A DNA stretch of 12,660 bases from a virus (lineage: Duplodnaviria; Heunggongvirae; Uroviricota; Caudoviricetes), in IMG/VR virus record IMGVR_UViG_2711768060_000001, positions 1-12,660 of that record, one strand, 5' to 3'. Below the pieces are notes generated by a model. That model did not search any database. It worked only from the letters and a program-made list of their open reading frames with translations, and had not been told where the DNA came from. This document shows, piece by piece, positions 495 through 12,660 of the stretch. Position 1 is the first letter of the stretch. Each line of letters opens with the position of its first letter. The translations under genes and the position numbers were made by a program.

Positions 495-572
495 GTCCCC
501 AGAAGGGGCCAATACTTATTCTTCTTCACGGACTTTGTCCCGCGGCGTTAATCCGACAGCCGCGCTTTTTTT
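495..572 (+). ncRNA. Candidate small RNA of about 80 nt between the promoter above and the terminator at 541-572
   Basis: No coding potential; internal hairpin CCCC-AGAA-GGGG (about 500-511); ends in stem CGCGGC/GCCGCG plus T7. Purely structural inference. Confidence 0.2.
541..572 (+). terminator. Rho-independent terminator (plus strand)
   Basis: Stem CGCGGC (541-546) / GCCGCG (559-564), 12-nt loop, followed by T7 at 566-572. Confidence 0.55.
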
Positions 573-608
573 GCGCCATATTCATCGCTGACTTATATGG
601 CATTGCCA

Positions 609-643
609 CACGGACATTATCAGTGTCCGTGTTTTCTTTTTTT
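609..643 (+). terminator. Rho-independent terminator (plus strand), second of a tandem pair
   Basis: Stem CACGGACA (609-616) / TGTCCGTG (624-631), 7-nt loop, followed by TTTTCTTTTTTT (632-643). Confidence 0.55.
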
Positions 644-652
644 GAATTCAGA

Positions 653-681
653 ATAAAAAAAACCGCCCAGTGGAGGCGGTT
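653..681 (-). terminator. Rho-independent terminator (minus strand), downstream of the tRNA genes
   Basis: Stem AACCGCC (661-667) / GGCGGTT (675-681) with the plus-strand A-run 653-662 giving a U-run after the hairpin on the minus strand. Confidence 0.55.
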
Positions 682-843
682 GGTCAATGCATGAGATCAA
701 TCATTTTTATTGTAATAGAAATCGAGGTGTCGGGTGCCTCCCGAAATATCCATCCCTACAACAGATATTGTGATTCCCCGTTAAACCACTATATAAACCA
801 CCCTCGCACTGAGGAACACCTCTGCGGTGCTGTTTACAACACC

Positions 844-905
844 AGAATGATGCATCACCGACCCTGCCAGGAAATACAAAATCTCCACCGATAATGCATC
901 ATTCT
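844..905. repeat. Perfect 13-bp inverted repeat CAGAATGATGCAT / ATGCATCATTCTG separated by 36 bp
   Basis: Arms at 844-856 and 893-905 are exact reverse complements; spacer contains CACCGA ... CCACCGA. Lies in a non-coding stretch between the tRNA genes and the terminators. Confidence 0.6.
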
Positions 906-1045
906 GCTGCCGTAAAAATTCAGCACTGAGGCTACACCCGACCTCAAATCATAGCCAGAGAACAGAATACCATTTAAACACAATCCGCTCCCACGTAATA
1001 AAAAATACGCCAGTGCTGTAATACAATAAGGCTTATTACAAATGT

Positions 1046-1120
<75 letters not shown>

Positions 1121-1123
1121 ATA

Positions 1124-1199
<76 letters not shown>

Positions 1200-1260
1200 A
1201 TTGGTTCTTCGGGGGAGCGATATCACCGATGAACAGGAGTTCCCCTCAGAACCGTTGCGC

Positions 1261-1288
1261 ATAATAACGGGCAAAAAAATTACTTCAA
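1261..1288 (-). promoter_or_regulatory. Candidate promoter for the tRNA-Thr/tRNA-Gly transcript
   Basis: On minus strand: -35 TTGAAG (1288-1283), 16-nt spacer, -10 TATTAT (1266-1261), then GC-rich GCGC discriminator; about 55 nt upstream of the mature tRNA-Thr 5' end. Confidence 0.35.
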
Positions 1289-1376
1289 CCAAAATAATCC
1301 GAAAAATAATCCCGGATTTGTAAATATATGCATATTTTTTATTTTTTCTAAAATAAAGAAATTACCAAATACACAT

Positions 1377-2423
1377 TTAACGATTATTTTTTATTTCAGT
1401 TACAGTCTGATTAAATCTCTCTTCTTCCAGTTCCACGCCAATCGCACGGCGTCCCAGTGAAAGTGCCGCTTTTATTGTTGAGCCTGAGCCCATGAAAAAA
1501 TCAGCAACCAAATCACCCGGACGGCTGCTGGCAGTAATTATCTGGCGCAACATATCGGCTGGTTTTTCACAGGGATGTTTGCCAGGGTAATACTGCACAG
1601 GCTTGTGCGTCCAGACATCCGTATACGGAACGGCAGCCGATACGGAAAAATAACGCCGCAGGGATTTGTACTCTTCCAGCAGGCTGGCATATTGCTGGTT
1701 CAGTTCACTGTATGTGCTGACCAGCTGGTGGTGTGGCTTTTCCGGTTCCCCGCGCTGATGTTTTTCTGCCGCAACACGCGCAAACAACACCTGCAATTTG
1801 TTGTAATCACCCTCGTTCGGTAATTGCCACTGACTGGTACCAAACCAGTGCGAAGCCATGTTTTTCTTTCCGGTGGCTTCCGCTATCTGTTTTGACGTTA
1901 TCCCCAGTGATTCACGCGCATCGCGAAAGTAAGAAATCAGCGGGGCCATGACGTGCTGTTTTAGCTCGCGCCCCTTTGCCGCATAGCCGTCATTTTTGGG
2001 CTGGTATGGCCCCTGATAATGTTCTGCAAACAGAATGCGTTCTGTTGCCGGGAAATACGCCCGCAGGCTTTCCTTGCTGCATCCGTTCCAGCGTCCGGAC
2101 GGCTTCGCCCAGATAATGTGGTTCAGCACATTAAAGCGTTCACGCATCATGATTTCGGTGTCAGATGCCAGGCGATGACCACAGAACAGGTAAAGACTTC
2201 CGGCAGGCTTCAGTACCCGCCAGAACTGCGCCAGACATCGGTCCAGCCATTTCAGATAATCATCGTCGCCCTTCCACTGGTTATCCCAGCCCTCGGGCTT
2301 CACTTTAAAGTATGGCGGGTCTGTGACTATCAGATCGACAGAGTTTTCCGGTATGGTCTGGATAAATTCCAGGCAATCAGCGTTGATTAACTCACAACTG
2401 GATATTTTTACAGTATTAGCCAT
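1377..2423 (-). CDS. Orphan DNA methyltransferase (N6-adenine or N4-cytosine, DPPY-type, beta-class motif order)
   Basis: 348-aa ORF with ATG start; motif IV TDPPY near the N-terminus (LIVTDPPYF) and motif I FxGxG near the C-terminus (DFFMGSGST). No restriction endonuclease partner nearby. Confidence 0.85.
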   Translation of the reverse strand: MANTVKISSCELINADCLEFIQTIPENSVDLIVTDPPYFKVKPEGWDNQWKGDDDYLKWLDRCLAQFWRVLKPAGSLYLFCGHRLASDTEIMMRERFNVLNHIIWAKPSGRWNGCSKESLRAYFPATERILFAEHYQGPYQPKNDGYAAKGRELKQHVMAPLISYFRDARESLGITSKQIAEATGKKNMASHWFGTSQWQLPNEGDYNKLQVLFARVAAEKHQRGEPEKPHHQLVSTYSELNQQYASLLEEYKSLRRYFSVSAAVPYTDVWTHKPVQYYPGKHPCEKPADMLRQIITASSRPGDLVADFFMGSGSTIKAALSLGRRAIGVELEEERFNQTVTEIKNNR

Positions 2424-2559
2424 AGATCAATAAGCACTTCTCTGATAGGCTCATACCGCTTTTGCGCAAAGCAGATGGGCCTGAGGTTTGCTTGTGACCC
2501 CAACGCACGAGCAGATGGCTGGCAGGTGCCGCTAACACCCACCAGCCGCCCATTACCAC

Positions 2560-2587
2560 AAATAAAAAAGCCTTCGCTAAGGAAGGC
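2560..2587 (-). terminator. Candidate rho-independent terminator (minus strand) between the small ORF and the methyltransferase gene
   Basis: Stem GCCTTC/GAAGGC (2570-2587) overlapping the TAG stop of ORF 2577-2894; plus-strand A-run 2562-2569 gives the U-run on the minus strand. Confidence 0.45.
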
Positions 2588-2894
2588 GTCTGTAACAACC
2601 GAACTGATAATCTGCCAGACCCGCCATAACAAGCTGAGTCAGTATTAACTGGCAGCGTTCGCGTGAAAGGTAAGTATTCTGCGCAATTTCCCCGACGGTC
2701 GCCGGTTCGGTGACGCTTAATTCATTAAACACCACTCTGGCAGTTTCGGTCATATCCTGCTGTTTTAGCATGTCTTTTTCCCTTTTCTGGTTAACGTGAC
2801 ATACCATTAACTCTTGTCGGAACAGCCAGCAAGCTGAAAGACCAGTATTCGCAACCACCAGCGCGTTTAATGTTCTGTACCGTTTTTCTGACAT
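2577..2894 (-). CDS. Small hypothetical protein, possibly winged-helix/HTH-like; start uncertain
   Basis: 105-aa ORF; the ATG at 2894 directly abuts the terminator U-tract with no SD. Internal ATG at 2771 has AAGGGA 8 nt upstream and would give a 64-aa product (MLKQQDMTETARVVFNELSVTEPATVGEIAQNTYLSRERCQLILTQLVMAGLADYQFGCYRRLP). Confidence 0.45.
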   Translation of the reverse strand: MSEKRYRTLNALVVANTGLSACWLFRQELMVCHVNQKREKDMLKQQDMTETARVVFNELSVTEPATVGEIAQNTYLSRERCQLILTQLVMAGLADYQFGCYRRLP

Positions 2895-2925
2895 AAAAAA
2901 AAACCTGCCAGGCGACAGGTTTTTT
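2895..2925 (-). terminator. Strong rho-independent terminator immediately downstream of the Q-like gene (tR'-like)
   Basis: Hairpin ACCTG-CCAGGCGA-CAGGT (2903-2920) flanked by A9 (2895-2903) and T5 (2921-2925); on the minus strand the hairpin is followed by U9. Confidence 0.6.
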
Positions 2926-2975
2926 GCTTACTTTGCCATCGCGTAAAAAATCGGCAAAATATCAGATTTGCACGA

Positions 2976-3004
2976 AATATATGCCTTTTAATCTACTTTT
3001 GCAA
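2976..3004 (-). promoter_or_regulatory. Candidate late promoter (pR'-like) overlapping the 3' end of the Q-like gene
   Basis: On minus strand: -35 TTGCAA (3004-2999), 17-nt spacer, -10 TATATT (2981-2976); predicted transcript of about 70 nt ends at the terminator 2895-2925. Confidence 0.35.
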
Positions 3005-3677
3005 TACCTTGCCTGGACAATATCGTCTTTTGTTTCGAACGTGTTCTCGCCGCAAACAATAAAGCTTCGCTATCCAGCTGATGAAAAATGTGTTTCATTG
3101 CAACCCAGTGACCAGTAAATGTTTTGGACCAGTTTTTGGTTGTTATTCCCGCCAGTAATGCCAGATCCTGGTATTCATAACCTTCTCCACCAAAAAGTTC
3201 TGCTTTTACTGCCTGCGCCGCCAGCCAGATTAATTTTTTCAGGCGTTCCCGTGTTTTCTCTGCAATTTTCCTGTTGCCAGAATGAGCCTTAAACTCTTCC
3301 CATGCCCAGCGGGTTATGGTGACCTGATACTCCCAGCAAATATTTCCGCTGTAACACCACAACAACCAGGTTTTATGAGGTTCTTCAAGAGACAGAACAG
3401 CCCGTCGCCATGAGGATGTCGAAAACTCAACCTGACTTACCAGAGGAATTGACGTCCCCTTCGCCAGCGATTGTTTCCCCGGGATTGGTGGATTATCCCG
3501 CGTGATAATTTTTCCAGTCACTTCATCGCGGTACCGGATTTTTTTACGCCTGTAACGCCCTGTATCGAACATGGCATTCTTCTGCCAGGCTTCAAGCTGA
3601 CCTTTTGTTGCCCCACTCAAATCGGCGGTGGCGATAATGAGCTGCTCACGAACAAACTGTAAATACTGGTTATTCAT
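2988..3677 (-). CDS. Putative late-gene antiterminator (Q-like)
   Basis: ORF track start at 3683 is GTG; the ATG at 3677 overlaps the rusA stop (ATGA). Product about 229 aa. Q assignment rests on synteny (after rusA and a YdfU-like gene, directly before a promoter plus terminator) and on recalled size of Qin-type Q proteins, not on a verified motif. Confidence 0.55.
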   Translation of the reverse strand: MNNQYLQFVREQLIIATADLSGATKGQLEAWQKNAMFDTGRYRRKKIRYRDEVTGKIITRDNPPIPGKQSLAKGTSIPLVSQVEFSTSSWRRAVLSLEEPHKTWLLWCYSGNICWEYQVTITRWAWEEFKAHSGNRKIAEKTRERLKKLIWLAAQAVKAELFGGEGYEYQDLALLAGITTKNWSKTFTGHWVAMKHIFHQLDSEALLFAARTRSKQKTILSRQGIAKVD

Positions 3678-4039
3678 GCGCACTCCAGCTCTGTGATTTT
3701 TATCCCCAACCGACCACCAGGAACGACCTGACCGCGCACAATATTAATTTCATCAAACTGCTCGTCGTCTATGAGCAGCCCCGCATGCGTCAGCGCATCC
3801 AGTGGTGCTTTCAGGATATTGTCCAGATCACGACGGCGTTTATCCGGTGGCTCTGCAATAATCTTTATCGCCAGCCTTCCGGACAGATTTAATTTCAGCC
3901 GCTGCTGGCGAACAATTAGCGCCACATCACGGCGATAACGCTCACCGACTTTTGATACAAAATATGTGCTGCCACGACGCCGCCAGTAAGTATTCACCGT
4001 CGGCGGATAAGGCAAAACAAATTCTATGCGTTCGGTCAT
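3674..4039 (-). CDS. rusA: RusA-family Holliday junction resolvase
   Basis: 121 aa with RusA hallmarks: LPYPPTVNTYWRRRG near the N-terminus, PDKRRRDLDNILKAPLDALTHAG, C-terminal GGRLGIKITE; about the same length as E. coli RusA. Confidence 0.9.
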   Translation of the reverse strand: MTERIEFVLPYPPTVNTYWRRRGSTYFVSKVGERYRRDVALIVRQQRLKLNLSGRLAIKIIAEPPDKRRRDLDNILKAPLDALTHAGLLIDDEQFDEINIVRGQVVPGGRLGIKITELECA

Positions 4040-5095
4040 TTATGCTTTCCACTTCAGGACACCCGAATTTCTCGCGTGCATTAAAAAACGAATCAGCAAC
4101 AACAGCTGGCTGCCGTGTTTTTCTTCAAAATCTTTTACTCCGGCGTGCAGTTCGTTATGACATTTACGGCACAGCGGAATAACAAACAAATCATCAGCCT
4201 TTGTTCCCATCCCTCCCAGTCCATGACCAATGATGTGATGCGGATCATCTGCCTGATTGCCACACGTCAGGCATTTCTGTGTTTTTACCCAGCGCGTGTA
4301 TACAGGCATCTCTTCCCGTTGTGGTTTCTGGCGCTGGAGATACTGAGCCGGTGACTCCGGATCAACGGCAATGCTGACCACCGTCTTTTCCTGTGGCGGG
4401 TTTTGCTGGTGGGCGTGAGGCAGCGGCGCAAGATTTTTTGTGCGCTGTTTCAGTATGCTGGTGGCGGTCTGTTCTCCCGGTACGATGTCGCTTTCGCGGT
4501 ACACCGAGCGAATTTTTTCCGCACGCAACCCCAGAGAACGACGTAATACTACCTCCGGTAGTGCGTCCGCCACCTGATTGCAGACCGCCCACCAGGATAA
4601 TTCAGCCAGCGATAATTCCCGCTCCTGTGTGCCATTCACTGCATGGCGTATGACGTCAATCATCCATGCTGACAGGTTTTGGTGAGCAAGTTGCCCGAGT
4701 GATTCTGAGGTCTGGTCACGCAACTGGTTGTCGCAGTGCCAGCACAATACCATCGCGCCGGTGCCGTAACGATATATGACGGTTTCACTGTGATGATAAT
4801 CGCCGTGTGGCCACTGGCAGGATTTAATATGGCGCAACAGCCAGTCAGACAATGCACCAGCACCACCGGCAGCACGAATTACCCGCTCATCGCTGAAAAA
4901 TGGCAGTAATGATTTATCTTCCGCCAGCGGCTGGCGAACGGCAGGAACGACTCCGGACGGCAGACCGCGCATACTTTTCGGTTCCGGTTCCACCAGTACT
5001 CTGCCGTTATGGAATACCTGCATGGATTCACGGCCAGGCTTAACGATAACCAGTCCGAGTTCCGGTACCAGAACAGGTCGAAGCAATACCCGCAT
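4040..5095 (-). CDS. ydfU: YdfU-like prophage protein (DUF968-like) with a C-terminal Cys/His HNH-like motif
   Basis: 351 aa; ATG at 5095 with GGAGG 5 nt upstream; C-terminus CLTCGN...DPHHIIGHGLGGMGTKADDLFVIPLCRKCHNELH. Family name recalled from Qin-prophage YdfU (similar length), not searched. Confidence 0.7.
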   Translation of the reverse strand: MRVLLRPVLVPELGLVIVKPGRESMQVFHNGRVLVEPEPKSMRGLPSGVVPAVRQPLAEDKSLLPFFSDERVIRAAGGAGALSDWLLRHIKSCQWPHGDYHHSETVIYRYGTGAMVLCWHCDNQLRDQTSESLGQLAHQNLSAWMIDVIRHAVNGTQERELSLAELSWWAVCNQVADALPEVVLRRSLGLRAEKIRSVYRESDIVPGEQTATSILKQRTKNLAPLPHAHQQNPPQEKTVVSIAVDPESPAQYLQRQKPQREEMPVYTRWVKTQKCLTCGNQADDPHHIIGHGLGGMGTKADDLFVIPLCRKCHNELHAGVKDFEEKHGSQLLLLIRFLMHARNSGVLKWKA

Positions 5096-5096
5096 G

Positions 5097-5375
5097 TTAC
5101 CTCCAGATGCGTTGCTGGAATGTGCGGGATGGACGTGGTGGGCGTTCGGAATAAGGAAGCCTGACGGAAATTATCCAGTGTCGGAAGTCAAGACTGAGGT
5201 CTTTCCTGACCTCGCGTCCGCGCCTGCGATAACACTGAATCAGCCATTCGGCCTGTTCTTCAGTGCACGGATCATGCTGGTACCAGTCAGTTTTAAAGAC
5301 GTGTGAACGCCGCCCGTACCGGATGGCAGGGTCGGCTGAGTTATCAGAATTGTGAAATTTGGTCTTGTGCGCCAT
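5097..5375 (-). CDS. Hypothetical nin-region protein; start uncertain (ATG 5375 or TTG 5429)
   Basis: ORF track start at 5429 is TTG; first ATG at 5375 gives 92 aa (MAHKTKFHNSD...). The TAA stop at 5097-5099 lies 1 nt from the start of the next gene. Confidence 0.5.
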   Translation of the reverse strand: MAHKTKFHNSDNSADPAIRYGRRSHVFKTDWYQHDPCTEEQAEWLIQCYRRRGREVRKDLSLDFRHWIISVRLPYSERPPRPSRTFQQRIWR

Positions 5376-5444
5376 CTGTTTTCTCTGCTGGCGCAGCAGG
5401 TGCCAGTTGTTCAGGCTGGCGTGCGGCAATATTGTCTCTGATTT

Positions 5445-5475
5445 CTGTTGTCGTCAACAGGCAGCGTGCTATCAT
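5445..5475 (+). promoter_or_regulatory. Candidate promoter with overlapping palindrome for the parDE-like operon
   Basis: Palindrome CTGTTG-TCGT-CAACAG (5445-5460) overlapping -35 TTGTCG (5448-5453); 16-nt spacer; -10 TATCAT (5470-5475); about 35 nt upstream of the antitoxin ATG. Confidence 0.35.
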
Positions 5476-5510
5476 CGAATAGTGTTCTATCCTACTCCGT
5501 GAGGTTTACC

Positions 5511-5768
5511 ATGCGTACAACCCAACAATTCAGCATTACATTAACTAACGAGATGGCTGACATGGTGCGCGCCCGTGTGGCTTCCGGTGCCTATGCTTCA
5601 GAAAGCGAGGTCATTCGTGAAGGGCTTCGCGCACTGAATGAGCGCGATAAAGCAATCGAAGCGTGGTTAACGCATTCAGCCGCCCCCTCTCTTGATTCTA
5701 TCCGCGAAAATCCAAACAACGGACGCTCCATTTCACAGGTTCGCGCCGCGATTCGATCCGGGAAGTAA
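5511..5768 (+). CDS. parD: ParD-family (ribbon-helix-helix) antitoxin
   Basis: ATG at 5511 with GAGG 8 nt upstream (ORF track start 5448 is a non-ATG extension). 85 aa, motif YASESEVIREGLRALNERD typical of ParD antitoxins; directly upstream of a ParE-like toxin. Confidence 0.8.
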   Translation: MRTTQQFSITLTNEMADMVRARVASGAYASESEVIREGLRALNERDKAIEAWLTHSAAPSLDSIRENPNNGRSISQVRAAIRSGK

Positions 5769-5773
5769 TCTGC

Positions 5774-6073
5774 ATGACATATGAAGTCATCATTACTCCT
5801 GAGGCCGAACAACAAATAATCAACCTGCACAGATATATAACGGAGAAAGCAGGAAGCGTCATTGCTGACAATTATGCCAATGCGCTTCTTGATTATCTTG
5901 ATGGGTTTTCTACATTCCCGCATCGGGGCAATAAACGCGATGATATTCGCCAGGGGATGCGGGTAACTCATTTCCGCCACAGAACGATTATTGCTTTTGC
6001 CGTTGATGGCAGAAAAGTCTTTATTGTCGGTATCTATCATGGTGGGCAAAGTTATGAAACCGATTTCTTATAA
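5774..6073 (+). CDS. parE: ParE-family toxin
   Basis: 99 aa, 5 nt after the antitoxin stop; ParE/RelE-fold pattern (MTYEVIITPEAEQQIINLHRYI ... RKVFIVGIYHGGQ). Confidence 0.85.
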   Translation: MTYEVIITPEAEQQIINLHRYITEKAGSVIADNYANALLDYLDGFSTFPHRGNKRDDIRQGMRVTHFRHRTIIAFAVDGRKVFIVGIYHGGQSYETDFL

Positions 6074-6156
6074 ACTTTTACCCACATCATTCCGGTGTTA
6101 GAATAAACCGTCCGCCCCCTCTCTTACTGGCGGATTCGTAGGCTATATAAATCAAA

Positions 6157-6190
6157 GATCCCGGCTCATGTTTGTGCCGGGATCTTTTTT
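6157..6190 (+). terminator. Rho-independent terminator after parE, placed between convergent genes
   Basis: Stem GATCCCGGC (6157-6165) / GCCGGGATC (6176-6184), 10-nt loop, T6 at 6185-6190. Confidence 0.6.
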
Positions 6191-6197
6191 CGGCGAT

Positions 6198-6281
6198 TTA
6201 TCCCCAGCGGCAAATCGAATACACCACCAGCGCCACAGCCATTGCGATTCCTGCCGTTGTAAATGCCTCAGGCCAGGTCAT
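6198..6281 (-). CDS. 27-aa hydrophobic single-helix peptide, translationally coupled to the upstream 301-aa gene
   Basis: Not in the ORF track (under 60 aa). ATG at 6281-6279 overlaps the TGA stop of ORF 6278-7183 (ATGA); GGAGGA lies 10 nt upstream. Translation MTWPEAFTTAGIAMAVALVVYSICRWG, TAA stop at 6200-6198. Confidence 0.35.
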   Translation of the reverse strand: MTWPEAFTTAGIAMAVALVVYSICRWG

Positions 6282-7183
6282 CGTAAAACATCCTCCACAC
6301 CAACCAGTCCGTTCTGCTTCAGATATTCCATCGCCTTATCAGGTAGATTGCTTGATTTATTGACGCTTTTTAACGAACTGGCTAATCGCTTAACCAACAT
6401 TGTTAATTCGTTAACCTGTTTTCCGGATGCTTGTGGATTGTCAGTTTTACCAGAAGTGGCGGTACAGTCGGCGTTCCCACTCTTCACCTCCTGCGGCGGC
6501 TCCGGTAGCGGCATCCAGTACAAGGCGTTCCCTAACCACGATAAAGTGCCGTCGCTCAACTCCACGTATTCCCCTTGTACCTGTCCTGCCATATACTCGC
6601 CGTGCTTTGAATAAATTAAAACCCAATCATCTTGCGCGGGAATCCGCTCACTACAGCTTATCCAACCATCCTTAGTTGCCGGGGAGCTGGTTGACGAATT
6701 CTTATTTTCCCGAAAGTTTCCGGCCTGAAACATAGCGGCGCGGTGACACCAGATAATCCAGCCAATCGCCATATCCCATGCCATGTATTCGCTACCGCCA
6801 TTTTTTGCCCTGCGGCGATCTACAGAATCCCCGAAATGCTTCTCCATAAATAACTCATAGGCAGCCCGTTCATCCGGCACTACCAGCATTGGCGGCGTGG
6901 CGTATAGCTTACGGGTCTGAACACCTGCCCCCTGGCATTTCTCTTCCTCAACAAATCTTTCGAAAGCATATTCCCCGCAATCTTCCCATTCTCCCCATTC
7001 ATCATATTCTGCATCCCACTGGCGATACTGATATGCCACCGGTTCTGCTACCAGCGATGCCAGCGCGATACGAAACACATTAGCAAGCAGGCTATTTGAA
7101 GATTGGTTATCGTGCGCCGCGTCGCTCAGGAAGCCAGTGATGAACGATTTAATCTCCACGTTTTTTCTGGTAATAGTGGTCAT
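6278..7183 (-). CDS. Hypothetical prophage protein (301 aa); C-terminal half may be DUF551-like
   Basis: ATG at 7183 with GAGGA 8 nt upstream; start overlaps the stop of the upstream 69-aa ORF (ATGA). Trp/acidic-rich middle (YQYRQWDAEYDEWGEWEDCGEY); the domain guess is from memory and low confidence. Confidence 0.75.
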   Translation of the reverse strand: MTTITRKNVEIKSFITGFLSDAAHDNQSSNSLLANVFRIALASLVAEPVAYQYRQWDAEYDEWGEWEDCGEYAFERFVEEEKCQGAGVQTRKLYATPPMLVVPDERAAYELFMEKHFGDSVDRRRAKNGGSEYMAWDMAIGWIIWCHRAAMFQAGNFRENKNSSTSSPATKDGWISCSERIPAQDDWVLIYSKHGEYMAGQVQGEYVELSDGTLSWLGNALYWMPLPEPPQEVKSGNADCTATSGKTDNPQASGKQVNELTMLVKRLASSLKSVNKSSNLPDKAMEYLKQNGLVGVEDVLR

Positions 7184-7389
7184 TTGTTAATCCTCAAAAC
7201 TTTATGCCCGGGTGCAAAAGCACGCGTTTTGTCTTTGCTTATTCGCCAACCATCCTTGCGCGCCTCTTTTGCACAGCCAGCCCATGACGTACCGATATAC
7301 TCACCAAAGTCTGGCGACTGATATTTGCCATCCGTACACTGGCGGCAATCACAATAGAGATGCATGGTATAACTTGCGGCAATACCCAT
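7180..7389 (-). CDS. Small Cys-rich (putative zinc-binding) hypothetical protein
   Basis: 69 aa, MGIAASYTMHLYCDCRQCTDGKY...GTSWAGCAKE; ATG directly follows the upstream TGA stop (TGAATG) with AAAGGAGG SD. Confidence 0.65.
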   Translation of the reverse strand: MGIAASYTMHLYCDCRQCTDGKYQSPDFGEYIGTSWAGCAKEARKDGWRISKDKTRAFAPGHKVLRINK

Positions 7390-7749
7390 TCAGCCTCCTT
7401 TGATGCCAGTGTTTACAACCAGGCAGGCCTCTTTGAGTATCCAGTCAACAGCGTCTTTCCATGCTCCGGTTTCGACTGGCGGATTTTCACGCTTAACCTG
7501 TTCATAGAAGCGCACTGCTTTAACCAGTCCTTCTGATGTCACCGGGGCTGGCGTGGCAGTGAATAAGGCCTGAATCTCATAGCTCGGCCTGTCGTTGCAA
7601 TCCTCTTTTGTCGGTACATATTTCCAGTCACCAACCCACATCTTCTCCTGAAAGTCCGTAACGCCTTTTTTCACATAGCGATATCTCCATGCAACTGGTT
7701 TTGCCTGCCCTACCGTTTCATGCCCTTCCTGATAATTAATCTCGCTCAT
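7390..7749 (-). CDS. Hypothetical prophage protein (119 aa)
   Basis: ATG at 7749-7747 overlaps the stop of the upstream 58-aa ORF (ATGA); no recognised motifs. Confidence 0.7.
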   Translation of the reverse strand: MSEINYQEGHETVGQAKPVAWRYRYVKKGVTDFQEKMWVGDWKYVPTKEDCNDRPSYEIQALFTATPAPVTSEGLVKAVRFYEQVKRENPPVETGAWKDAVDWILKEACLVVNTGIKGG

Positions 7750-7922
7750 TCATCGCCCCACTCATCACAATATGCTTCGACAGGTGTTTTTCCTGCTTCG
7801 TAGTCATCACGCCAGGCTTCAGCATCAGCAGCACTTCCACCACGTAACTCTGCATAATCCATTAACAGTTCATGCCATTCTTCAAAACTGACGTTGTATT
7901 TAGTTGAACCAAAATCAGCCAT
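7746..7922 (-). CDS. Small acidic hypothetical protein (58 aa)
   Basis: Not in the ORF track. ATG at 7922 preceded by GAGGAGGAAG; translation MADFGSTKYNVSFEEWHELLMDYAELRGGSAADAEAWRDDYEAGKTPVEAYCDEWGDE; its stop overlaps the next start (ATGA). Confidence 0.5.
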   Translation of the reverse strand: MADFGSTKYNVSFEEWHELLMDYAELRGGSAADAEAWRDDYEAGKTPVEAYCDEWGDE

Positions 7923-8097
7923 TTTGTTCTTCCTCCTCGTCTTTTATTTCGTGATATGAGTAATTGCAGTAGTTAAAGAAAATTTCTTTTGCTTCGTCAT
8001 GAATTTCATCAGGTGTTGCGTCATCGTCCACTTCGAATACATCCTCAAAATCTCCACCAGCTATTCCCGTTTCAATAATTATTTTGAACTTTCGCAT
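7915..8097 (-). CDS. Small highly acidic hypothetical protein (60 aa)
   Basis: ATG at 8097; product is rich in D/E (…DFEDVFEVDDDATPDEIHDEAKE…KDEEEEQNG); 3' end overlaps the next ORF start by 8 nt. Confidence 0.55.
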   Translation of the reverse strand: MRKFKIIIETGIAGGDFEDVFEVDDDATPDEIHDEAKEIFFNYCNYSYHEIKDEEEEQNG

Positions 8098-8168
8098 TTC
8101 ACTACCGCCTTTTCGGGTGGCCTCCTGATGTTCTGAGGGTGCAGAAATCCCTCCTGTTAAGGATTAAT

Positions 8169-8185
8169 ATTTAGCAGTGCTAAAT
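8169..8185. repeat. AT-rich perfect palindrome ATTTAGCA-G-TGCTAAAT in the intergenic gap
   Basis: 8-bp arms around a central G at 8177; lies between the stop of ORF 8190-8936 and the start of ORF 7915-8097. Confidence 0.5.
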
Positions 8186-8189
8186 TTAA

Positions 8190-8936
8190 TTAACTGCGGG
8201 AAAAATCAGTAATCTGTCGAACAATATCCCGGTGCCTGTTCAACTCCCGCAGCGCGGCGCAGATACGCTCCCACTTCTGGACATGATTTTTCGCCCGACG
8301 CAGTTCGCGATTTGCCATATGCAGCGATGGCAAAACCAGGTCATCCGCTTGTGTTTCGGTGAACGATGGCAACGACTGCACAATGTCCGCCACAGTTTCT
8401 GTTTTAATATCTTCCTGTGTTGCAGCCTCCTGTACTGGTAACGCAACACCTGCGGGCTGAGGAAAGGCCTTACCATCAGTTTCCGCTACCGATGCTGCTT
8501 TCGGCTCTGCTGGTAAATTATCGCCCGGTATGCAGTAACGAAATTTACCGCCCTGATTTACGCGAATCAGACGACCTTTGCTGATTGCCATTGCCAGCGT
8601 TGAAGCCACTTTGCGGGATGTTGTACCGAACAGCGTAGCCAGTTCATCCGCCGTTTGTGGGCCACGTTGTTCAATCGTCGAAGTTAAATCGCTCTCCGAA
8701 ATTTTCGTCACTGTTGCCGTAGTGGTTTCTTCCGGCAGTACTGCCTGTGCTGGCTGTCCCTGCTGAACGTTGTTATCAGCCACACGCCAGGTGTATACGC
8801 TTCTATCAACGAAGCCAGCCTTTTTCAGTTCCCACAGCTCGTTCAGCACTTCTTCACGACTGATATCAAGTCGCGCTGCCAGTTCTACCGACGTGGCTTT
8901 TCCCATTGCTTTCAGTGCGTCAAAAACGGTCTCCAT
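8190..8936 (-). CDS. Prophage protein with N-terminal winged-helix-like region (DUF1627-like); start reassigned to internal ATG
   Basis: ORF track start 9002 has a poorly spaced SD and would overlap the P-like gene; the ATG at 8936 has GGGAGG 8 nt upstream and gives 248 aa ([45 protein letters not shown]...). Family name from memory. Confidence 0.7.
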
Positions 8937-8970
8937 TAAAATTTCCTCCCGGTAAAAATTACTTCTCAAC

Positions 8971-9636
8971 TCAAACAAACCCAGCCGCTTTCCGGCGTTC
9001 ATATTCCTGTTTCAGCAACTCAATTGGAGTTGGCCCCGACGGGCGTTCTGGTGCAGCCAGTTGCCGCCGTACGGGCGGAACACTGAAGCCGTCACCAACA
9101 TGCTTTGCCCATTTCGCCAGTTGCCGTTCTGCAAGTCGTTTTAACTCCCCTTCGGTCATCTGGCGCTCAATCCCCTTTGAACGCATCTCGAGGCAAATGT
9201 GATACAGCACAGGCTGAGACCACGGGTATTTATCGCTTCCGTCGTATCGCCAGGACTCGTTGCGCCAGCGGCGGTACTCCTCCATCACGGCATCCACAGT
9301 CAAACCAAACGGATTTGCCCCACTTTCCGAAATCAACGCCACAAACTCTGCCAGGTCAGGAGGCCATGTTTCACCCGCCCGACAACGCTCCATGCACTGG
9401 CGGCAGACCTGCCGGATTTGCTGCTCAGTCATCGCGCCAATCTGTGCAATCCAGAGCTTCGAAGGTGCGGCCCCGTTCTTCTGAGTCCAGCGGTTCGAAT
9501 AAACCTCCCCCATGAGTTCCCACAGCTTCCACGCCGTTTCCGTCGCTGATAAATCCGTTTTCACGTTCCCACTGCTCACGTGCTGCCCGAATTTCCTGAA
9601 CTGCCCGTGATGCGGTGCCACCTGGCGTTGCTGCAT
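8971..9636 (-). CDS. Lambda-P-like replication protein (helicase loader)
   Basis: 221 aa; ATG at 9636 with AAGGGGGTGA SD. Segments such as [27 protein letters not shown] and [20 protein letters not shown] parallel recalled lambda P segments (FVAWCREE, YPWKSNAHYWLVTNL, TDAELRRKAADELVHMTARI). Overlaps the O-like ORF by 212 nt in another frame. Confidence 0.75.
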
Positions 9637-10465
9637 GGCTCACCCCCTTGCTGACTGGTTTAACCTGCGCCCTGACGTGATTTACGTGACGGGCGAATTT
9701 CTGCTCCCACTGAACCTGCGTGAAAACTTTCCCCTCCGCTGCCCAGTAGTCCCGGAAGGCGGCAAGTTCAGCAGGTGTAAATTCCGGCTCCGGCAGAGCC
9801 ACTCCCCACAGTGCAGCCCGTTGTCGGAAATCGGGCGACGGATTCCAGCCGTCGGTCATCGGAAATTTTCCGATGGGTTCGCTCAGACCTTCCAGGTAAT
9901 CAGGTTCCGCTGCCTGCAACGGCGCGCCATTCGACTCACTGGTCGGAGCGATCTCGCGCACGCGCGCGCTATGTGTGGGGTTTAATTCTTTATCTGTATC
10001 TGTATCTGTCGTGACTCGTCGTGACATGTCGTGACATATGCGTGACTCGTCGTGACATTCCTCATTCTGTTTTCGTAATTTTTCCCTCTCACGCTGCGCT
10101 CTCTTGCGCTCTGCCGGGGATTTCGCGGTTTGAGAAACGTTACCGTTGTCCTCTTTCAGTACCTGGCGTTTTTCCCATCCAGTGATTAAATCTCCATCAA
10201 GCACCCGCCCCTGCATTGCTTGCAAAATTGAATCAATTACGTCTTCCGTCACATCAAGCGCACTTGCTAAATCTTCCGTCGTGACATCAATGTGACCCCG
10301 TAGTGACACGCCGTGACATGTCGTGACATTTCGTGACGCGCTAACCAGAAGGTGGATATACACCGCCATCACTGTTGCAATCGGCTGTCCTGACACCCTT
10401 GAAATTGTTCGCCACTTAGGGTCATTTGGCATGTCATGCCATAATCTGAGCCAGGCGTTGGCCAT
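9425..10465 (-). CDS. Replication initiator (lambda-O-like role) with iteron arrays embedded in its coding sequence
   Basis: ORF track start 10471 is GTG; ATG at 10465 has AGAGGTGA SD. Positioned directly upstream of the P-like gene. Contains two arrays of GTGAC-core direct repeats and a (TD)3 linker encoded by (TATCTG)3. Confidence 0.7.
   Translation of the reverse strand: MANAWLRLWHDMPNDPKWRTISRVSGQPIATVMAVYIHLLVSASRNVTTCHGVSLRGHIDVTTEDLASALDVTEDVIDSILQAMQGRVLDGDLITGWEKRQVLKEDNGNVSQTAKSPAERKRAQREREKLRKQNEECHDESRICHDMSRRVTTDTDTDKELNPTHSARVREIAPTSESNGAPLQAAEPDYLEGLSEPIGKFPMTDGWNPSPDFRQRAALWGVALPEPEFTPAELAAFRDYWAAEGKVFTQVQWEQKFARHVNHVRAQVKPVSKGVSHAATPGGTASRAVQEIRAAREQWERENGFISDGNGVEAVGTHGGGLFEPLDSEERGRTFEALDCTDWRDD
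9991..10056. repeat. (TATCTG)x3 tandem repeat followed by iteron array A: five (T)CGTGAC repeats at 10-11 bp spacing
   Basis: TATCTG x3 at 9991-10008; GTGAC cores at 10011, 10021, 10031, 10042 and 10052. An alternating CG tract (9951-9970) lies adjacent. Confidence 0.65.
10278..10337. repeat. Iteron array B: six GTGAC-core direct repeats at 10-11 bp spacing
   Basis: GTGAC at 10281, 10292, 10303, 10313, 10323 and 10333, same orientation as array A and about 225 bp from it; inside the N-terminal coding region of the O-like gene. Confidence 0.6.
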
Positions 10466-10536
10466 ACTCACCTCTTCTGATACCGAATCTTTTTACTCAC
10501 GAGTTTCCGGAAGCGATCCGGTATGAATATTGTCAG

Positions 10537-10962
10537 TCAATGTACCGCCACAGCATTTCCTGCCGGGCCACCACGATTCATCTGATCGAACAAAGTGATC
10601 GCTGATGCAACAAACTCGTCGATATCTTTCACCAGGCGCTCCCGTCGCTCGACAAGCTCCCGGTGATATTCCGAACTGTGGCTGCGCATCCAGGCCACCA
10701 GCGGAGGTGGCATTGCCTTTTCGATCGCTGGTAACAGCGCCTGAATTTTTTCAACAGCATCAGGAGTGTCTTTATCTAGCCAACGGAAAATCTTTTGGGT
10801 GTTGAGATAAAGTGCGTTGTGCTTGCTGTCGTTATGCAGAACCGGAAACGTCATACCCAGCTCAAAATAAGCCCTGGTTATTTCAGCTGCCGGAACTTTT
10901 TCACCGTCCGGATGCGCCCAGGCATTCATCGCCATGCGGATGTGTTCATGCTTGATTTTCAT
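10537..10962 (-). CDS. ydaT: YdaT-like protein (Rac prophage family; CII-like, toxic on derepression)
   Basis: 141 aa; begins MKIKHEHI and ends ...VH like recalled Rac YdaT; its start overlaps the stop of the upstream YdaS-like gene. Confidence 0.75.
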   Translation of the reverse strand: MKIKHEHIRMAMNAWAHPDGEKVPAAEITRAYFELGMTFPVLHNDSKHNALYLNTQKIFRWLDKDTPDAVEKIQALLPAIEKAMPPPLVAWMRSHSSEYHRELVERRERLVKDIDEFVASAITLFDQMNRGGPAGNAVAVH

Positions 10963-11218
10963 GAATCAACTCCGGCGCATTTGATGTGTTAGTCTTACAT
11001 CCAACAGGTAAACCGTCGGTTGGGTTAGGATAAATATCAGGGCGAATTTCATGCGGGGTAACTTCCCACTTCATTAACTGGCATAACGGAATTACCTGCT
11101 TTGGGGGAACGCCAAAGCTAAACCATTGCCAAACGGTCTGTTGAGCGACCCCCATATAGCGACCTATTTCAGCTTGAGTGTATTTCTGCCTAATTTTTTC
11201 GCGAGTGCTATCTAGCAT
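10946..11218 (-). CDS. ydaS: YdaS-like Cro-type HTH protein
   Basis: ATG at 11218 with GAGGAGGG SD (ORF track start 11272 is an upstream extension); motif GVAQQTVWQWFSFGVPPKQV...IRPD; divergent from the repressor gene. Confidence 0.7.
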   Translation of the reverse strand: MLDSTREKIRQKYTQAEIGRYMGVAQQTVWQWFSFGVPPKQVIPLCQLMKWEVTPHEIRPDIYPNPTDGLPVGCKTNTSNAPELIHENQA

Positions 11219-11253
11219 TTTGCCCTCCTCTGAAAACGATAAACAAAGCCTAC

Positions 11254-11288
11254 AATAAAAAACTGTATGCAATCAACAGTTTTTTATT
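11254..11288. promoter_or_regulatory. Operator-like perfect palindrome AATAAAAAACTGT-N9-ACAGTTTTTTATT in the divergent promoter region
   Basis: 13-bp arms at 11254-11266 and 11276-11288 are exact reverse complements; lies between the YdaS-like and repressor genes; the same CTGT/ACAG core recurs at 12288-12324. Confidence 0.5.
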
Positions 11289-11326
11289 GTGATGCTTTTA
11301 ACAGTATTTACCTGTAAAATTGAATA

Positions 11327-11728
11327 ATGATGAACGCCCTAGAAGTATCTATGTACAGAATCAGCAAGCTTCTTCAGGAAACTGGATGGAGCCAGGCTGA
11401 ACTTGCCCGTAGAATTGGTGTGACACAACAAACTGTTCAACAATGGGTCAGCGGTAAGGCCACACCTAAAGCCTCAAGTTTGGATAAACTGGTTGAGGTT
11501 ACAGGGCATCCATTGCATTGGTTTTTATTGCCTCCAGAAGAGGGGGAGCAAATTTTCACCCCTGACACGATGAAAATTGGTCCTCGCCAACGCGAACTGC
11601 TCCAAGCTTTTAGTGCGTTTCCAGAGGAAGACCAAGAAAAAATGCTTCAAGAAATCAAAGACAAGAAAAAATCAATGGAAGAAACCATTGCCCGGTGGTT
11701 GGCGGCACAAAAAAGCCGCCGGGCGTGA
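11327..11728 (+). CDS. Prophage repressor, XRE/CI-type HTH, lacking a LexA-like S24 protease domain (RacR-like role)
   Basis: 133 aa; N-terminal HTH (SQAELARRIGVTQQTVQQWVSGKATP); too short for a C-terminal autocleavage domain; divergent from YdaS-like; no SD, with -10-like TAAAAT (11315-11320) ending 6 nt before the ATG. Confidence 0.8.
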   Translation: MMNALEVSMYRISKLLQETGWSQAELARRIGVTQQTVQQWVSGKATPKASSLDKLVEVTGHPLHWFLLPPEEGEQIFTPDTMKIGPRQRELLQAFSAFPEEDQEKMLQEIKDKKKSMEETIARWLAAQKSRRA

Positions 11729-11755
11729 CCACTGTACAAGAAGAGGAGTTATGCC

Positions 11756-11947
11756 ATGAATACAGCCCTTTCTCCGATAGTTTCAGAATTCGAAACTACC
11801 GAACAAGAAAACAGTTACAACGAATGGTTGCGCGCTAAAGTGGCGTTAAGCCTTGCAGACCCTCGCCCCGCAATTCCACATGACGAGGTAATGGCTGAAA
11901 TGGAAAATCTTATTGCTCAAATTGCTGCAACTAACAGGAGCGAGTAA
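11756..11947 (+). CDS. Putative antitoxin of a RelE/ParE-type toxin-antitoxin pair
   Basis: 63 aa; GAGGAG SD; stop overlaps the start of the downstream toxin (TAATG). Assignment mainly by genetic context. Confidence 0.65.
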   Translation: MNTALSPIVSEFETTEQENSYNEWLRAKVALSLADPRPAIPHDEVMAEMENLIAQIAATNRSE

Positions 11948-12234
11948 TGTTACCCATTTTATGGCTACCATCTGCTCGCGATGATTTGCGTCAGATCGTA
12001 ACCTATATTGCTAAGGAAAACATTCCTGCAGCACGCAGACTAAAAATACGTATTGAAACGTCTGTTTTAGCCCTCTCTGAGCATCCATATCTATATCCGC
12101 TAAGTGATCGAGTATCCGGTTTGCGGGAAATTGTGGTTCACCCTAATTATATCGTGTTGTACCGAGTAGCAACTTCAAGCATTGAAATTGCGAATATTGT
12201 GCATGCCCGTCGACAATTTCCCTTCTCTATCTGA
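11947..12234 (+). CDS. RelE/ParE-superfamily toxin
   Basis: 95 aa; MLPILWLPSARDDLRQIVTYIAKENIPAARRL...EIVVHPNYIVLYRV...IEIANIVHARR fits the RelE/ParE pattern; translationally coupled to the antitoxin. Confidence 0.8.
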   Translation: MLPILWLPSARDDLRQIVTYIAKENIPAARRLKIRIETSVLALSEHPYLYPLSDRVSGLREIVVHPNYIVLYRVATSSIEIANIVHARRQFPFSI

Positions 12235-12250
12235 GCCGAACAATTTCCAT

Positions 12251-12277
12251 ACTCCCTCACTCGAGGGAGTTTTTTTG
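12251..12277 (+). terminator. Rho-independent terminator after the toxin gene
   Basis: Stem ACTCCCTC (12251-12258) / GAGGGAGT (12263-12270), 4-nt loop, T-run 12270-12276. Confidence 0.65.
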
Positions 12278-12287
12278 CCTAAAACAA

Positions 12288-12330
12288 CAATTAAAAACTG
12301 TTGACACAAAACAGTTTTTAATTGTAGATT
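12288..12330 (+). promoter_or_regulatory. Rightward early promoter overlapped by a 15-bp-arm operator palindrome (pL-like)
   Basis: Palindrome CAATTAAAAACTGTT-gacacaa-AACAGTTTTTAATTG (12288-12324); -35 TTGACA at 12301-12306 inside it; -10 TAGATT at 12325-12330 (18-nt spacer). Confidence 0.5.
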
Positions 12331-12509
12331 GTTTTTACCAACCCACCCCGCCCCACAGAACGCAGGGCAATACTTCGAGTTACCAGGCAGTGGTCAGGGG
12401 TTAAGTAGCCAGCCCGAGGCGTAAGAACATGACGGCAGGGTTCAACTTTAATAACTATGCAGCAGGTTTTTGTTCCGCTACCCCGGCGTTAAGGGGAAAT
12501 GAGGTCAAC

Positions 12510-12660
12510 ATGGATACTATCGATCTTGGCAACAACGAATCTCTGGTGTACGGCGTGTTTCCCAACCAGGACGGCACATTCACCGCGATGACGTATACCA
12601 AAAGCAAAACGTTTAAAACCGAAAATGGTGCCCGTCGCTGGCTGGAAAGAAACTCAGGTG
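12510..12660 (+). CDS. Partial ORF (continues beyond window), first gene of the rightward early operon; hypothetical
   Basis: ATG at 12510 with GAGG 6 nt upstream; open to the window edge (MDTIDLGNNESLVYGVFPNQDGTFTAMTYTKSKTFKTENGARRWLERNSG...). Confidence 0.55.
   Translation, partial: MDTIDLGNNESLVYGVFPNQDGTFTAMTYTKSKTFKTENGARRWLERNSG

Follow-up and report, generated by a model that had tools for sequence, protein, structure and literature searches.

What does a phage gain from a pair of small overlapping genes whose products belong to families named as toxins? The question is raised by positions 10537-11218 of the 12,660-nt stretch analysed here (the window; positions 1 to 12,660 of the Caudoviricetes record IMGVR_UViG_2711768060_000001), where a ydaS-like and a ydaT-like gene are transcribed divergently from an immunity repressor. 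The first-pass annotation had taken this arrangement for a conditional toxicity module of the kind described in the Rac prophage. Every element that it named was confirmed at the coordinates given there. Our analysis points elsewhere: the pair very probably forms the head of the rightward early operon in a lambdoid immunity region of the CP-933M/Sp4 type, in which analogues of Cro and CII are combined with a PaaA-ParE addiction module. Such a layout has been described before for cryptic prophages of Escherichia coli O157:H7 and is already known, which makes the finding genuine but unremarkable. Its main value lies in the correction of annotation, as the Pfam and PGAP labels ‘YdaS_toxin’ and ‘toxin YdaT family protein’ invite a toxin reading.

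Two predicted regulators and an operator at their junction

The ydaS-like gene (10946-11218, minus strand; 90 aa) opens the operon that runs divergently from the repressor gene and, by analogy, encodes a Cro-type helix-turn-helix (HTH) regulator at the head of a rightward (PR-type) operon. The program-made open reading frame for this gene covered 10946-11272 with a TTG start; the true start codon is the ATG at 11218, which is preceded by GAGGAGG, and the same 273-bp gene is annotated by PGAP in relatives. The protein matches Pfam YdaS_toxin (PF15943; 38.8 bits, cutoff 30) and PHROG 35 (E=1e-28). It has the recognition helix QQTVxQW in common with the window's own repressor (HTH 42% identical, E=2e-8), and, judged from this sequence likeness, would share the operator specificity of that repressor. 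No similarity to the characterised YdaS of CP-933P was detectable by BLAST, and the Cro role proposed for the protein therefore rests on its position, its family and the common recognition helix. A PDB sequence search returned nothing significant, the best relevant match being the Xylella Cro protein 3bd1 (E=0.13). A single-sequence AF2 model of four helices was of poor confidence (pLDDT 61), and the top Foldseek matches of this low-confidence model were all XRE/Cro/CI domains, every one of them with a non-significant E-value above 0.3.

The ydaT-like gene (10537-10962, minus strand; 141 aa) overlaps the ydaS-like gene by 17 nt and has its own GGAG 7 nt 5' of its ATG. Its product matches Pfam YdaT_toxin (PF06254; 35.3 bits, cutoff 21), PHROG 163 ‘CII-like transcriptional activator’ (E=1e-44) and, in a PDB sequence search, the YdaT of CP-933P (8bt1, E=1e-76) and 3c4r (E=3e-73); an NCBIfam search matched no model for either this protein or the YdaS-like one. 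Identity to the CP-933P YdaT, the structure of which is solved (8bt1), amounts to 83% over 141 aa. The alignment shows that R60 (the invariant Arg60) and W61 are kept, and that the tetramer core (positions 103/110/111/114/117/118/121) reads L/L/V/I/F/V/A here and I/L/V/V/F/V/A in CP-933P. By analogy, the protein is probably a CII-type transcription factor with a POU-like HTH and a C-terminal tetramerisation helix, and a YdaT homologue is indeed labelled ‘activator protein cII’ in phage records.

The predicted binding site for such a protein, a YdaT box or OM-type operator of the form TTGATT-N6-AATCAA, lies at 10952-10969, where it covers the 3' end of ydaS and the start codon of ydaT. The match is exact and occurs as a single copy in the window, with 0.04 expected by chance. 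The footprinted OM site of CP-933P has the same sequence (PMC9986795), and the Rac YdaT-box, ATGATTCATGAAAATCAA, is one mismatch away (PMC11879457). In an alignment of the junctions, the window, CP-933P and Sp4 share one sequence for the box and the first ydaT codons, from which Rac departs only slightly. A consensus promoter scan gave no candidate for the YdaT-dependent reverse (PRE-type) promoter, which was not placed in the window.

Repressor, predicted operators and promoters

The immunity repressor (11327-11728, plus strand; 133 aa; HTH_3, E=2e-13) is a CI analogue of the PaaR1/DicA type without an S24 peptidase domain. It is 100% identical to its counterpart in strain IHE3034 and 98% identical to that of O157:H7 Sp4, resembles the HTH of the 434 repressor (E=2e-5), and shows 42% identity to PaaR2 in the C-terminal 98 aa and 28% identity to DicA over the full length (BLASTP E=2e-12; the match to the DicA model NF007257 is below its cutoff). 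The first-pass annotation had described the locus as Rac-type, and its gene order, a repressor divergent from a ydaS-like and then a ydaT-like gene, is indeed that of Rac. Its repressor is not: aligned to RacR, it matches within the HTH (53 aa, 34% identity, pairwise E=1e-3) and nowhere beyond, and RacR orthology was rejected in favour of the PaaR/DicA type.

Between the divergent genes lie three 15-bp candidate operators, ACA(A/G)T-N5-A(C/T)TGT, at 11252-11266, 11276-11290 and 11301-11315, which with their 24/25-bp phasing are putative analogues of OR1-3. The first, read on the opposite strand, is identical to the second. The trio is conserved in IHE3034 and TW14359, whose repressor is the same, and is missing from the CP-933P intergenic region. 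We infer from these repeats that the repressor and the YdaS-like protein bind the ACA-N9-TGT operators.

A putative PR-like promoter for ydaS-ydaT occupies 11247-11276 on the minus strand (-35 TTGATT, the reverse complement of 11271-11276; 18-nt spacer; -10 TAGGCT, the reverse complement of 11247-11252), whereas a putative PRM-like promoter region spans 11315-11327 on the plus strand, with the -10 hexamer TAAAAT (11315-11320) seven nt from the repressor ATG at 11327. Inspection of the sequence before this ATG revealed no Shine-Dalgarno motif, and the repressor mRNA is probably leaderless, as are the mRNAs of PaaR2 of CP-933P and of lambda cI (PMC8630535). Beyond parE, an OL/PL analogue (12287-12330, plus strand) carries two further candidate operators (12287-12301 and 12311-12325) that overlap the promoter-like sequence TTGACA-18-TAGATT (12301-12330). 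This analogue is kept in IHE3034 and TW14359; its unit of 39 nt matches that at OR with 79% identity, and the PR-like promoter is an inverted paralogue of the PL-like one. The first open reading frame downstream of it encodes YdfA. CP-933P has an analogous promoter, PL933P, which is repressed by PaaR2 and YdaS (PMC8630535). The consensus scan caught the PL-like promoter only and missed the weak hexamers of PR, which fell below its threshold, and of PRM; these two were therefore assigned by eye and by symmetry with PL. An Rfam search of the window found two tRNAs only; within the immunity region it matched no known sRNA.

The PaaA-ParE module and the replication genes

The repressor gene is followed after 27 nt by a gene for a 63-aa PaaA-type antitoxin without a DNA-binding domain (11756-11947, plus strand; Pfam PaaA2 E=9e-22; PDB 3zbe E=3e-23), which overlaps by 1 nt with a gene for a 95-aa ParE-type toxin (11947-12234, plus strand; Pfam ParE_toxin E=3e-15; PDB 5cw7, ParE2, E=6e-37). 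An intrinsic-terminator-like hairpin with a T-run (12251-12270, plus strand), kept in relatives, closes the repressor-paaA-parE operon. The antitoxin is 77% identical to PaaA2 and 89% identical to its Sp4 counterpart; for the toxin, the figures are 67% (ParE2) and 86% (Sp4). With the HTH repressor, this antitoxin of the PaaA2 family and the ParE toxin make up a three-component PaaR-PaaA-ParE system. The earlier reading of a mosaic immunity region with a toxin-antitoxin (TA) pair behind the repressor was right.

Downstream of ydaT lie O/P-like replication genes, which had been called lambda-like. The 153-aa product of 8971-9432 (minus strand) is a member of the lambda P family (Pfam Phage_lambda_P E=2e-16). 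The 346-aa replication initiator encoded at 9425-10465 (minus strand), whose gene contains clusters of CGTGAC iterons, carries a DnaT domain (Pfam DnaT E=2e-18) and not Phage_rep_O; its membership of the lambda O family was rejected, and the label O is therefore positional.

A proposed lambda-style switch with an embedded addiction module

Experiments on CP-933P established that YdaS is an analogue of Cro and YdaT one of CII, and that the two are no TA pair (PMC8630535); YdaT was also shown to be a DNA-binding tetramer with a solved structure and a defined operator (PMC9986795). The reverse promoter for the repressor is activated by YdaT both in Rac (PMC11879457) and in CP-933P (PMC8630535). 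The homologies, the operator box and the repeat architecture found in the window, all conserved in relatives, fit the same plan. By analogy with experiments on CP-933P, Rac and lambda, from which DNA binding, promoter activities and bistability are carried over, we propose a mechanism in which (i) the YdaS-like protein would act as a Cro analogue and rival the repressor for the 15-bp ACA-N9-TGT operators; (ii) these contested operators would overlap the PR-like promoter of ydaS-ydaT-O-P, the leaderless PRM-like promoter of repressor-paaA-parE and the PL-like promoter beyond parE, so that competition between the two proteins would produce a bistable switch; (iii) YdaT, as a tetrameric CII analogue with a POU-like HTH, would bind the TTGATT-N6-AATCAA box at the ydaS/ydaT junction and activate a reverse promoter, thereby raising transcription of the repressor operon; and (iv) PaaA-ParE, co-transcribed with the repressor, would serve as an addiction module that stabilises the region. 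The locus thus reads as a CI/Cro/CII switch in the manner of lambda, in which a PaaA-ParE module is embedded, as shown for CP-933P.

The alternative put forward in the first-pass annotation is that loss of the repressor lets YdaS and YdaT kill or arrest the host, which would make the repressor essential. Both window proteins are homologous to those of Rac (for YdaS, 33% identity across 51 aa, E=7e-6; for YdaT, 32% along its whole length, E=8e-15), where RacR is essential because expression of ydaS-ydaT is toxic (PMC5700373, PMC5700377) and where over-expression of YdaT lowers CFU by four orders of magnitude (PMC11879457). The YdaT box is common to the window and Rac, and host targets such as rcsA are perhaps common too; growth defects also followed prolonged over-expression of PaaR2 and YdaS of CP-933P (PMC8630535). 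However, the identity to the Rac proteins is only 32-33%, a distance comparable to that of the CP-933P proteins from Rac (YdaS 26%, YdaT 31%; PMC8630535), and the repressor is not RacR-like. The YdaT of CP-933P, 83% identical to the one in the window, is not toxic, most cells with the CP-933P reporter plasmid grew with ydaST switched on, and a version of that plasmid with a stop mutation in paaR2 still gave a measurable, uniformly ydaST-on population (PMC8630535). Rac YdaT itself is now seen as a transcription factor of the CII type, and the toxicity of its over-expression arises in part through the host rcsA promoter (PMC11879457), and over-expression toxicity has been regarded by Jobling as a general side effect of Cro/CII-type regulators (PMC5917428). 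A repressor deletion could moreover be lethal through the PL operon, which carries dicB/kil in relatives, or through polar loss of PaaA; any toxicity on derepression could equally come from that operon or from disturbed paaA-parE expression. Support for the proposed conditional toxicity module is therefore partial, extending to the families and the gene order and not to the toxicity, because the relatives in CP-933P are Cro/CII analogues with a non-toxic YdaT and a measurable paaR2 stop mutant population. Toxicity on derepression in the window's host is not the best-supported function, and we consider it unlikely to be the main effect of the pair.

It is likewise improbable, to a slightly greater degree, that the pair is an inert relic, intact by sequence, in a region kept in the genome by PaaA-ParE alone. 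Both CP-933P and CP-933M are cryptic, and in the former the TA locus mediates post-segregational killing and stabilises plasmids (PMC8630535). The repressor in the window lacks the S24 autocleavage domain, so that no SOS induction route is visible. Nevertheless, both reading frames, the YdaT box and the five operators are intact and are kept in E. coli relatives, where protein identity is 84-99%, the regulators of CP-933P are functional despite the cryptic state of that prophage (PMC9986795), and close ydaT homologues are present in deposited Escherichia phage genomes. That YdaS and YdaT form a genuine type II TA pair, as the Pfam names YdaS_toxin and YdaT_toxin and the small, overlapping genes might suggest, is hardly credible and was rejected on the literature on relatives and the predicted DNA sites for both proteins: the ‘toxin’ names come from algorithmic prediction unconfirmed by experiments (PMC5917428, PMC8630535), YdaT is a solved DNA-binding tetramer whose defined operator is found in the window, and the YdaS-like and YdaT-like proteins are both HTH regulators.

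Within the Cro/CII reading that we prefer, the junction itself deserves attention. In many E. coli and phage alleles, homology to the window ends at about 10967-10973, just beyond the box, and such loci occur in one to six copies per genome in more than half of the complete E. coli genomes. We tentatively raise the idea, which we regard as rather doubtful, that the YdaT box and ydaT form a ‘public’ CII-type module of heteroimmune prophages, while the cassette of repressor, Cro and operators is ‘private’. If this were true, the YdaT of one prophage, or of a phage entering the cell, could activate the repressor genes of heteroimmune prophages resident in the same host, a form of cross-prophage lysogeny reinforcement, and the box could serve as a recombination joint for swapping immunity cassettes.

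Comparison with known systems

In lambda, three operators with approximately 24-bp phasing lie between the divergent promoters PR and PRM, a second operator set lies at PL, and a CII-type activator site is located at the cro/cII junction. The window has the same logic and geometry, with its OR trio, PL operator set, probably leaderless repressor mRNA and site at the cro/cII-type junction, and its operator half-site ACAAT and QQ-containing recognition helix resemble those of 434. In contrast to lambda, its repressor has no autocleavage domain, and paaA-parE takes the place of rexA-rexB. The dicA-dicC-ydfX region of the Qin prophage (E. coli K-12) is related through the repressor, which is DicA-like over its full length (28%, E=2e-12), through YdfX, a truncated YdaT homologue of 37% identity, and through YdfA, the first product of the PL operon, which is 100% identical; however, DicC is dissimilar to the YdaS-like protein, and no TA pair follows dicA. 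The racR-ydaS-ydaT locus of the Rac prophage, also of K-12, has the same divergent order of repressor, Cro-like and CII-like genes, products of the same Pfam families and a nearly identical YdaT box at the start of ydaT. It differs in the low protein identity of only 32-33%, in RacR, which is unrelated beyond the HTH, in the missing TA pair behind the repressor, in ydaS and ydaT being 22 nt apart rather than overlapping, and in its replication genes, ydaU/ydaV. Among the systems compared, toxicity is on record for Rac only.

The closest relative is Sp4 (Sakai ECs_1067-1071), the reported equivalent of CP-933M. It carries the window's five genes in unchanged order, again with a 17-nt overlap between ydaS and ydaT. 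The five-gene layout is found in both Sp4 and Sp12 of strain Sakai. Identities to the window are 130/133 for the repressor, 89/90 (99%) for the YdaS-like protein, 118/141 (84%) for YdaT, 56/63 for PaaA and 82/95 for ParE; divergence is greater in YdaT and the TA pair than in the repressor/Cro cassette. At the DNA level, Sp4 matches the window base for base in the three OR operators, one OL operator and the YdaT box, and is one base off in the second OL operator. The replication genes differ, with O/P-like genes in the window and a different replication protein with a DnaC-like ATPase in O157:H7. Hallez 2010 and Jurenas 2021 reportedly mention a paaR1-paaA1-parE1 homologue, the Sp4/CP-933M region, and we know of no experimental dissection of its switch.

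Among relatives that have been characterised, the closest is the paaR2-paaA2-parE2/ydaS-ydaT region of CP-933P (Sakai Sp12), which has been dissected and has the same architecture built from the same kind of parts (PMC8630535, PMC9986795). Judged by sequence, the window locus is a heteroimmune sibling of this region. The likeness comprises YdaT (83%), an identical OM box, PaaA (77%), ParE (67%) and the C-terminal region of the repressor (42%), as well as a leaderless-looking repressor start and an OL/PL analogue beyond parE. In contrast, YdaS is dissimilar by BLAST and the N-terminal HTH of the repressor is different; the candidate operators are ACA-N9-TGT in the window and GTTTAGTAA-type repeats in CP-933P, the intergenic region measures 108 bp as against 97 bp, and ydaS and ydaT overlap by 17 nt as against 4 nt. 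Our modest addition is a sequence-level map of predicted operators and promoters for the CP-933M/Sp4 immunity type, with ACA-N9-TGT repeats at OR and OL and a probably leaderless repressor start, which provides a heteroimmune counterpart for testing the CP-933P model.

Results

The window, which is the whole of the 12,660-bp contig CXYG01000041.1 (assembly GCA_001269325.1), carries a lambdoid prophage early region, and ORF and family searches of it returned the coordinates and gene order given in the first-pass annotation. A YdaS-like gene of 90 aa (10946-11218, minus strand; ATG at 11218 with GAGGAGG just 5' of it, the mechanical ORF list running out to a TTG at 11272) overlaps by 17 nt a YdaT-like gene of 141 aa (10537-10962, minus strand), which has its own GGAG 7 nt 5' of its ATG. 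To the left, also on the minus strand, lie the gene of a DnaT-domain protein in the O position and then that of a lambda-P-family protein. Divergent from the pair is an HTH_3 repressor gene of 133 aa (11327-11728, plus strand), and the toxin-antitoxin pair noticed behind it consists of a PaaA2-family antitoxin gene (11756-11947, plus strand), directly 3' of the repressor gene, and a ParE toxin gene (11947-12234, plus strand), with a terminator-like hairpin after the latter (12251-12270).

The YdaS/YdaT assignment was borne out, the 90-aa protein matching Pfam YdaS_toxin and the 141-aa protein Pfam YdaT_toxin above threshold. The former also matches PHROG 35 (E=1e-28). The latter aligns almost end to end with the solved structures 8bt1 (CP-933P YdaT; E=1e-76) and 3c4r (E=3e-73), is assigned in PHROGs to 'CII-like transcriptional activator' (E=1e-44), and has a homologue labelled 'activator protein cII' in phage records; Qin encodes a truncated YdaT homologue, YdfX. 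PaaA and ParE match solved PaaA2 and ParE2. The repressor is DicA-like along its length (28%, E=2e-12).

Alignment to Rac, proposed with the reading of the locus as Rac-type, showed that the pair is homologous to K-12 Rac ydaS/ydaT, distantly (YdaS 33% over 51 aa, E=7e-6; YdaT 32% over full length, E=8e-15). The repressor is not a RacR orthologue, since the match to RacR is confined to the HTH (34% over 53 aa, E=1e-3), and we do not retain the Rac-type designation.

Proteins were compared by BLASTP with those of Sakai Sp12, which is identical to CP-933P (PMC8630535), Sakai Sp4, the counterpart locus of TW14359, and IHE3034. Identical residues with Sp4, whose five-gene layout was confirmed in the fetched Sakai sequence, number 130/133 for the repressor, 89/90 for the YdaS-like protein, 118/141 for YdaT, 56/63 for PaaA and 82/95 for ParE. 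With CP-933P, identity is 83% for YdaT, 77% for PaaA and 67% for ParE, the repressor matches PaaR2 at 42% over the C-terminal 98 aa only, and BLASTP detects no similarity for the YdaS-like protein. These protein identities therefore place the locus, at the sequence level, in the CP-933M/Sp4 immunity type (we take Sp4 to be equivalent to CP-933M), with the CP-933P region as its heteroimmune sibling. It would correspond to the paaR2-paaA2-parE2 homologue that CP-933M carries (PMC8630535). Among the 5,426 complete genomes of E. coli, about 490 have this allele set nearly full length, and >3,000 have a ydaT allele.

The footprinted YdaT operator of CP-933P, TTGATT-N6-AATCAA (PMC9986795), occurs exactly once in the window (10952-10969; 0.04 expected by chance), where it covers the ydaS end and the ydaT ATG. 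Its coding strand, TTGATTCATGAAAATCAA, is the same in CP-933P and Sp4, whereas the Rac YdaT-box, ATGATTCATGAAAATCAA, which YdaT needs to activate the reverse promoter for racR (PMC11879457), differs by one base. Most ydaT alleles of E. coli and phages are homologous to the window only as far as about 10967-10973, directly past the box, and beyond it they carry varied cro genes annotated as DicC, Cro/CI family or YdaS family, in agreement with the mosaic region suggested earlier. The C-terminal IHENQA is common to otherwise unrelated Cro-position proteins, such as that of Sp11, because those codons overlap both the box and the start of ydaT. The pattern suggests a mosaic joint at the box, where a common ydaT module meets interchangeable cro/repressor cassettes; mosaics of this sort are common and already described.

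Several further observations concern ydaT. In three phage records the match shrinks to the 35 nt that surround the box and the start of ydaT. In Sakai Sp11 (fetched sequence L004, 38556-39937), a 77%-identical YdaT adjoins an unrelated 80-aa Cro-position protein, the 112-aa repressor has no BLAST similarity to ours, the TA pair is absent, and the left half of the box is degenerate (GGGATT). YdaT differs from its CP-933P counterpart at 24 residues, and eight of these changes (E41V, Y43H, D44N, H47K, P48H, E49N, A52Y, R53L) crowd into residues 41-53, which make up the hypervariable alpha2-alpha3 loop and the first part of the recognition helix. Species-representative genomes contain no exact match to a 50-mer taken from this part of the gene. 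Antisense to ydaT and inside it are two terminator-like hairpins with T-runs (10694-10711 and 10726-10739, plus strand), which had no Rfam match; they may have arisen by chance or may mark where an oop-like antisense RNA ends.

Within the 108 bp between the divergent genes lie three 15-bp ACA-N9-TGT sites (putative OR; 11252, 11276 and 11301), phased 24/25 bp, the first and second being perfect reverse complements. A 39-bp unit recurs, 79% identical, just past the parE terminator (putative OL, 12287-12325), overlapped by a good PL-like promoter (TTGACA-18-TAGATT) directed away from parE. Because of the symmetry with PL, TTGATT-18-TAGGCT (11276-11247, minus strand) is the candidate PR-like promoter. 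Among solved structures, the HTH nearest to the repressor's comes from phage 434, whose operators likewise begin ACAA. All five operator sites are kept in IHE3034 and TW14359, a base change in IHE3034 falling in a spacer with the arms intact; the CP-933P intergenic region has none of the five, its operators being GTTTAGTAA-type repeats (PMC8630535). A PRM-like TAAAAT (11315-11320) likely sets the first transcribed base at the A of the repressor's ATG start codon (11327), which has no Shine-Dalgarno; this predicted leaderless arrangement resembles PaaR2 and lambda cI, whose mRNAs are leaderless (PMC8630535). Over the HTH, identity between the YdaS-like protein and its own repressor is 42%, and both have the recognition helix QQTVxQW, which fits competition for the same operators.

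Elsewhere in the window, two 10-bp-phased CGTGAC(A/T) repeat clusters in the O-position replication gene (9998-10068 and 10278-10339; about 250 bp apart, with seven overlapping 30-nt copies) are probably origin iterons. A ParD-type antitoxin and ParE-type toxin pair (5448-5768 and 5774-6073, both plus strand), distinct from PaaA-ParE, sits among nin-region genes of the opposite strand. The late-early region (1377-5095, minus strand) is ordinary lambdoid in content: an N6/N4 DNA methylase (1377-2423), antiterminator Q (2988-3683), RusA (3674-4039) and a DUF968/HNH protein (4040-5095), all on the minus strand. Near the Q/methylase end of the contig is a phage tRNA islet of tRNA-Gly(tcc) and tRNA-Thr(tgt) (1046-1199, minus strand), whereas O157:H7 prophages carry Ile/Arg tRNA sets. 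Taken as a whole, the window aligns with E. coli prophages over about 65% of its length, at an identity of only about 89-92%.

Discussion

From homology, position and cis-element architecture, we infer binding, promoter activity and bistability, and propose that the locus is a lambda-type bistable immunity switch in which the repressor would act as the CI analogue, the YdaS-like protein as the Cro analogue and YdaT, from the junction box, as the CII analogue, with PaaA-ParE as an addiction module in place of rexAB.

The alternative is the conditional toxicity module of the first-pass annotation. In Rac, derepression of ydaS-ydaT is toxic and RacR essential (PMC5700373, PMC5700377; for YdaT toxicity also PMC11879457), and Rac YdaT is itself a tetrameric CII analogue (PMC11879457). 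While the families were named correctly, toxicity is not the best-supported function, the 83%-identical CP-933P YdaT being non-toxic (PMC8630535). With a paaR2 stop mutant on a CP-933P reporter plasmid the population was still measurable, the majority of reporter-plasmid cells grew ydaST-on, and growth was slowed only by prolonged over-expression of PaaR2 or YdaS (PMC8630535). Jobling's critique, that regulators of the Cro/CII type are not toxins simply by being toxic when over-expressed (PMC5917428), applies to this pair. Should the repressor prove essential to this host, the PL operon and polarity onto the antitoxin gene would be confounders: the first PL ORF (12510-12660, plus strand), which leaves the contig end, encodes YdfA (product 100% identical to residues 1-50 of 51 of the E. 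coli K-12 Qin protein YdfA, DUF1391), and genes 3' of parE in the relatives examined include dicB and kil.

The proposed immunity switch belongs to a kind of locus already known. Its experimental groundwork comes from CP-933P, in which PaaR2 and YdaS footprint on operators that overlap, both repress PRM, PR and PL, PRM is activated at low PaaR2, YdaT activates a reverse promoter, the immunity locus is bistable and the TA pair stabilises plasmids (PMC8630535). To this our analysis adds a sequence-level map of putative operators and promoters in the Sp4/CP-933M immunity type; it also picks out the YdaT box as the likely marker of the mosaic joint.
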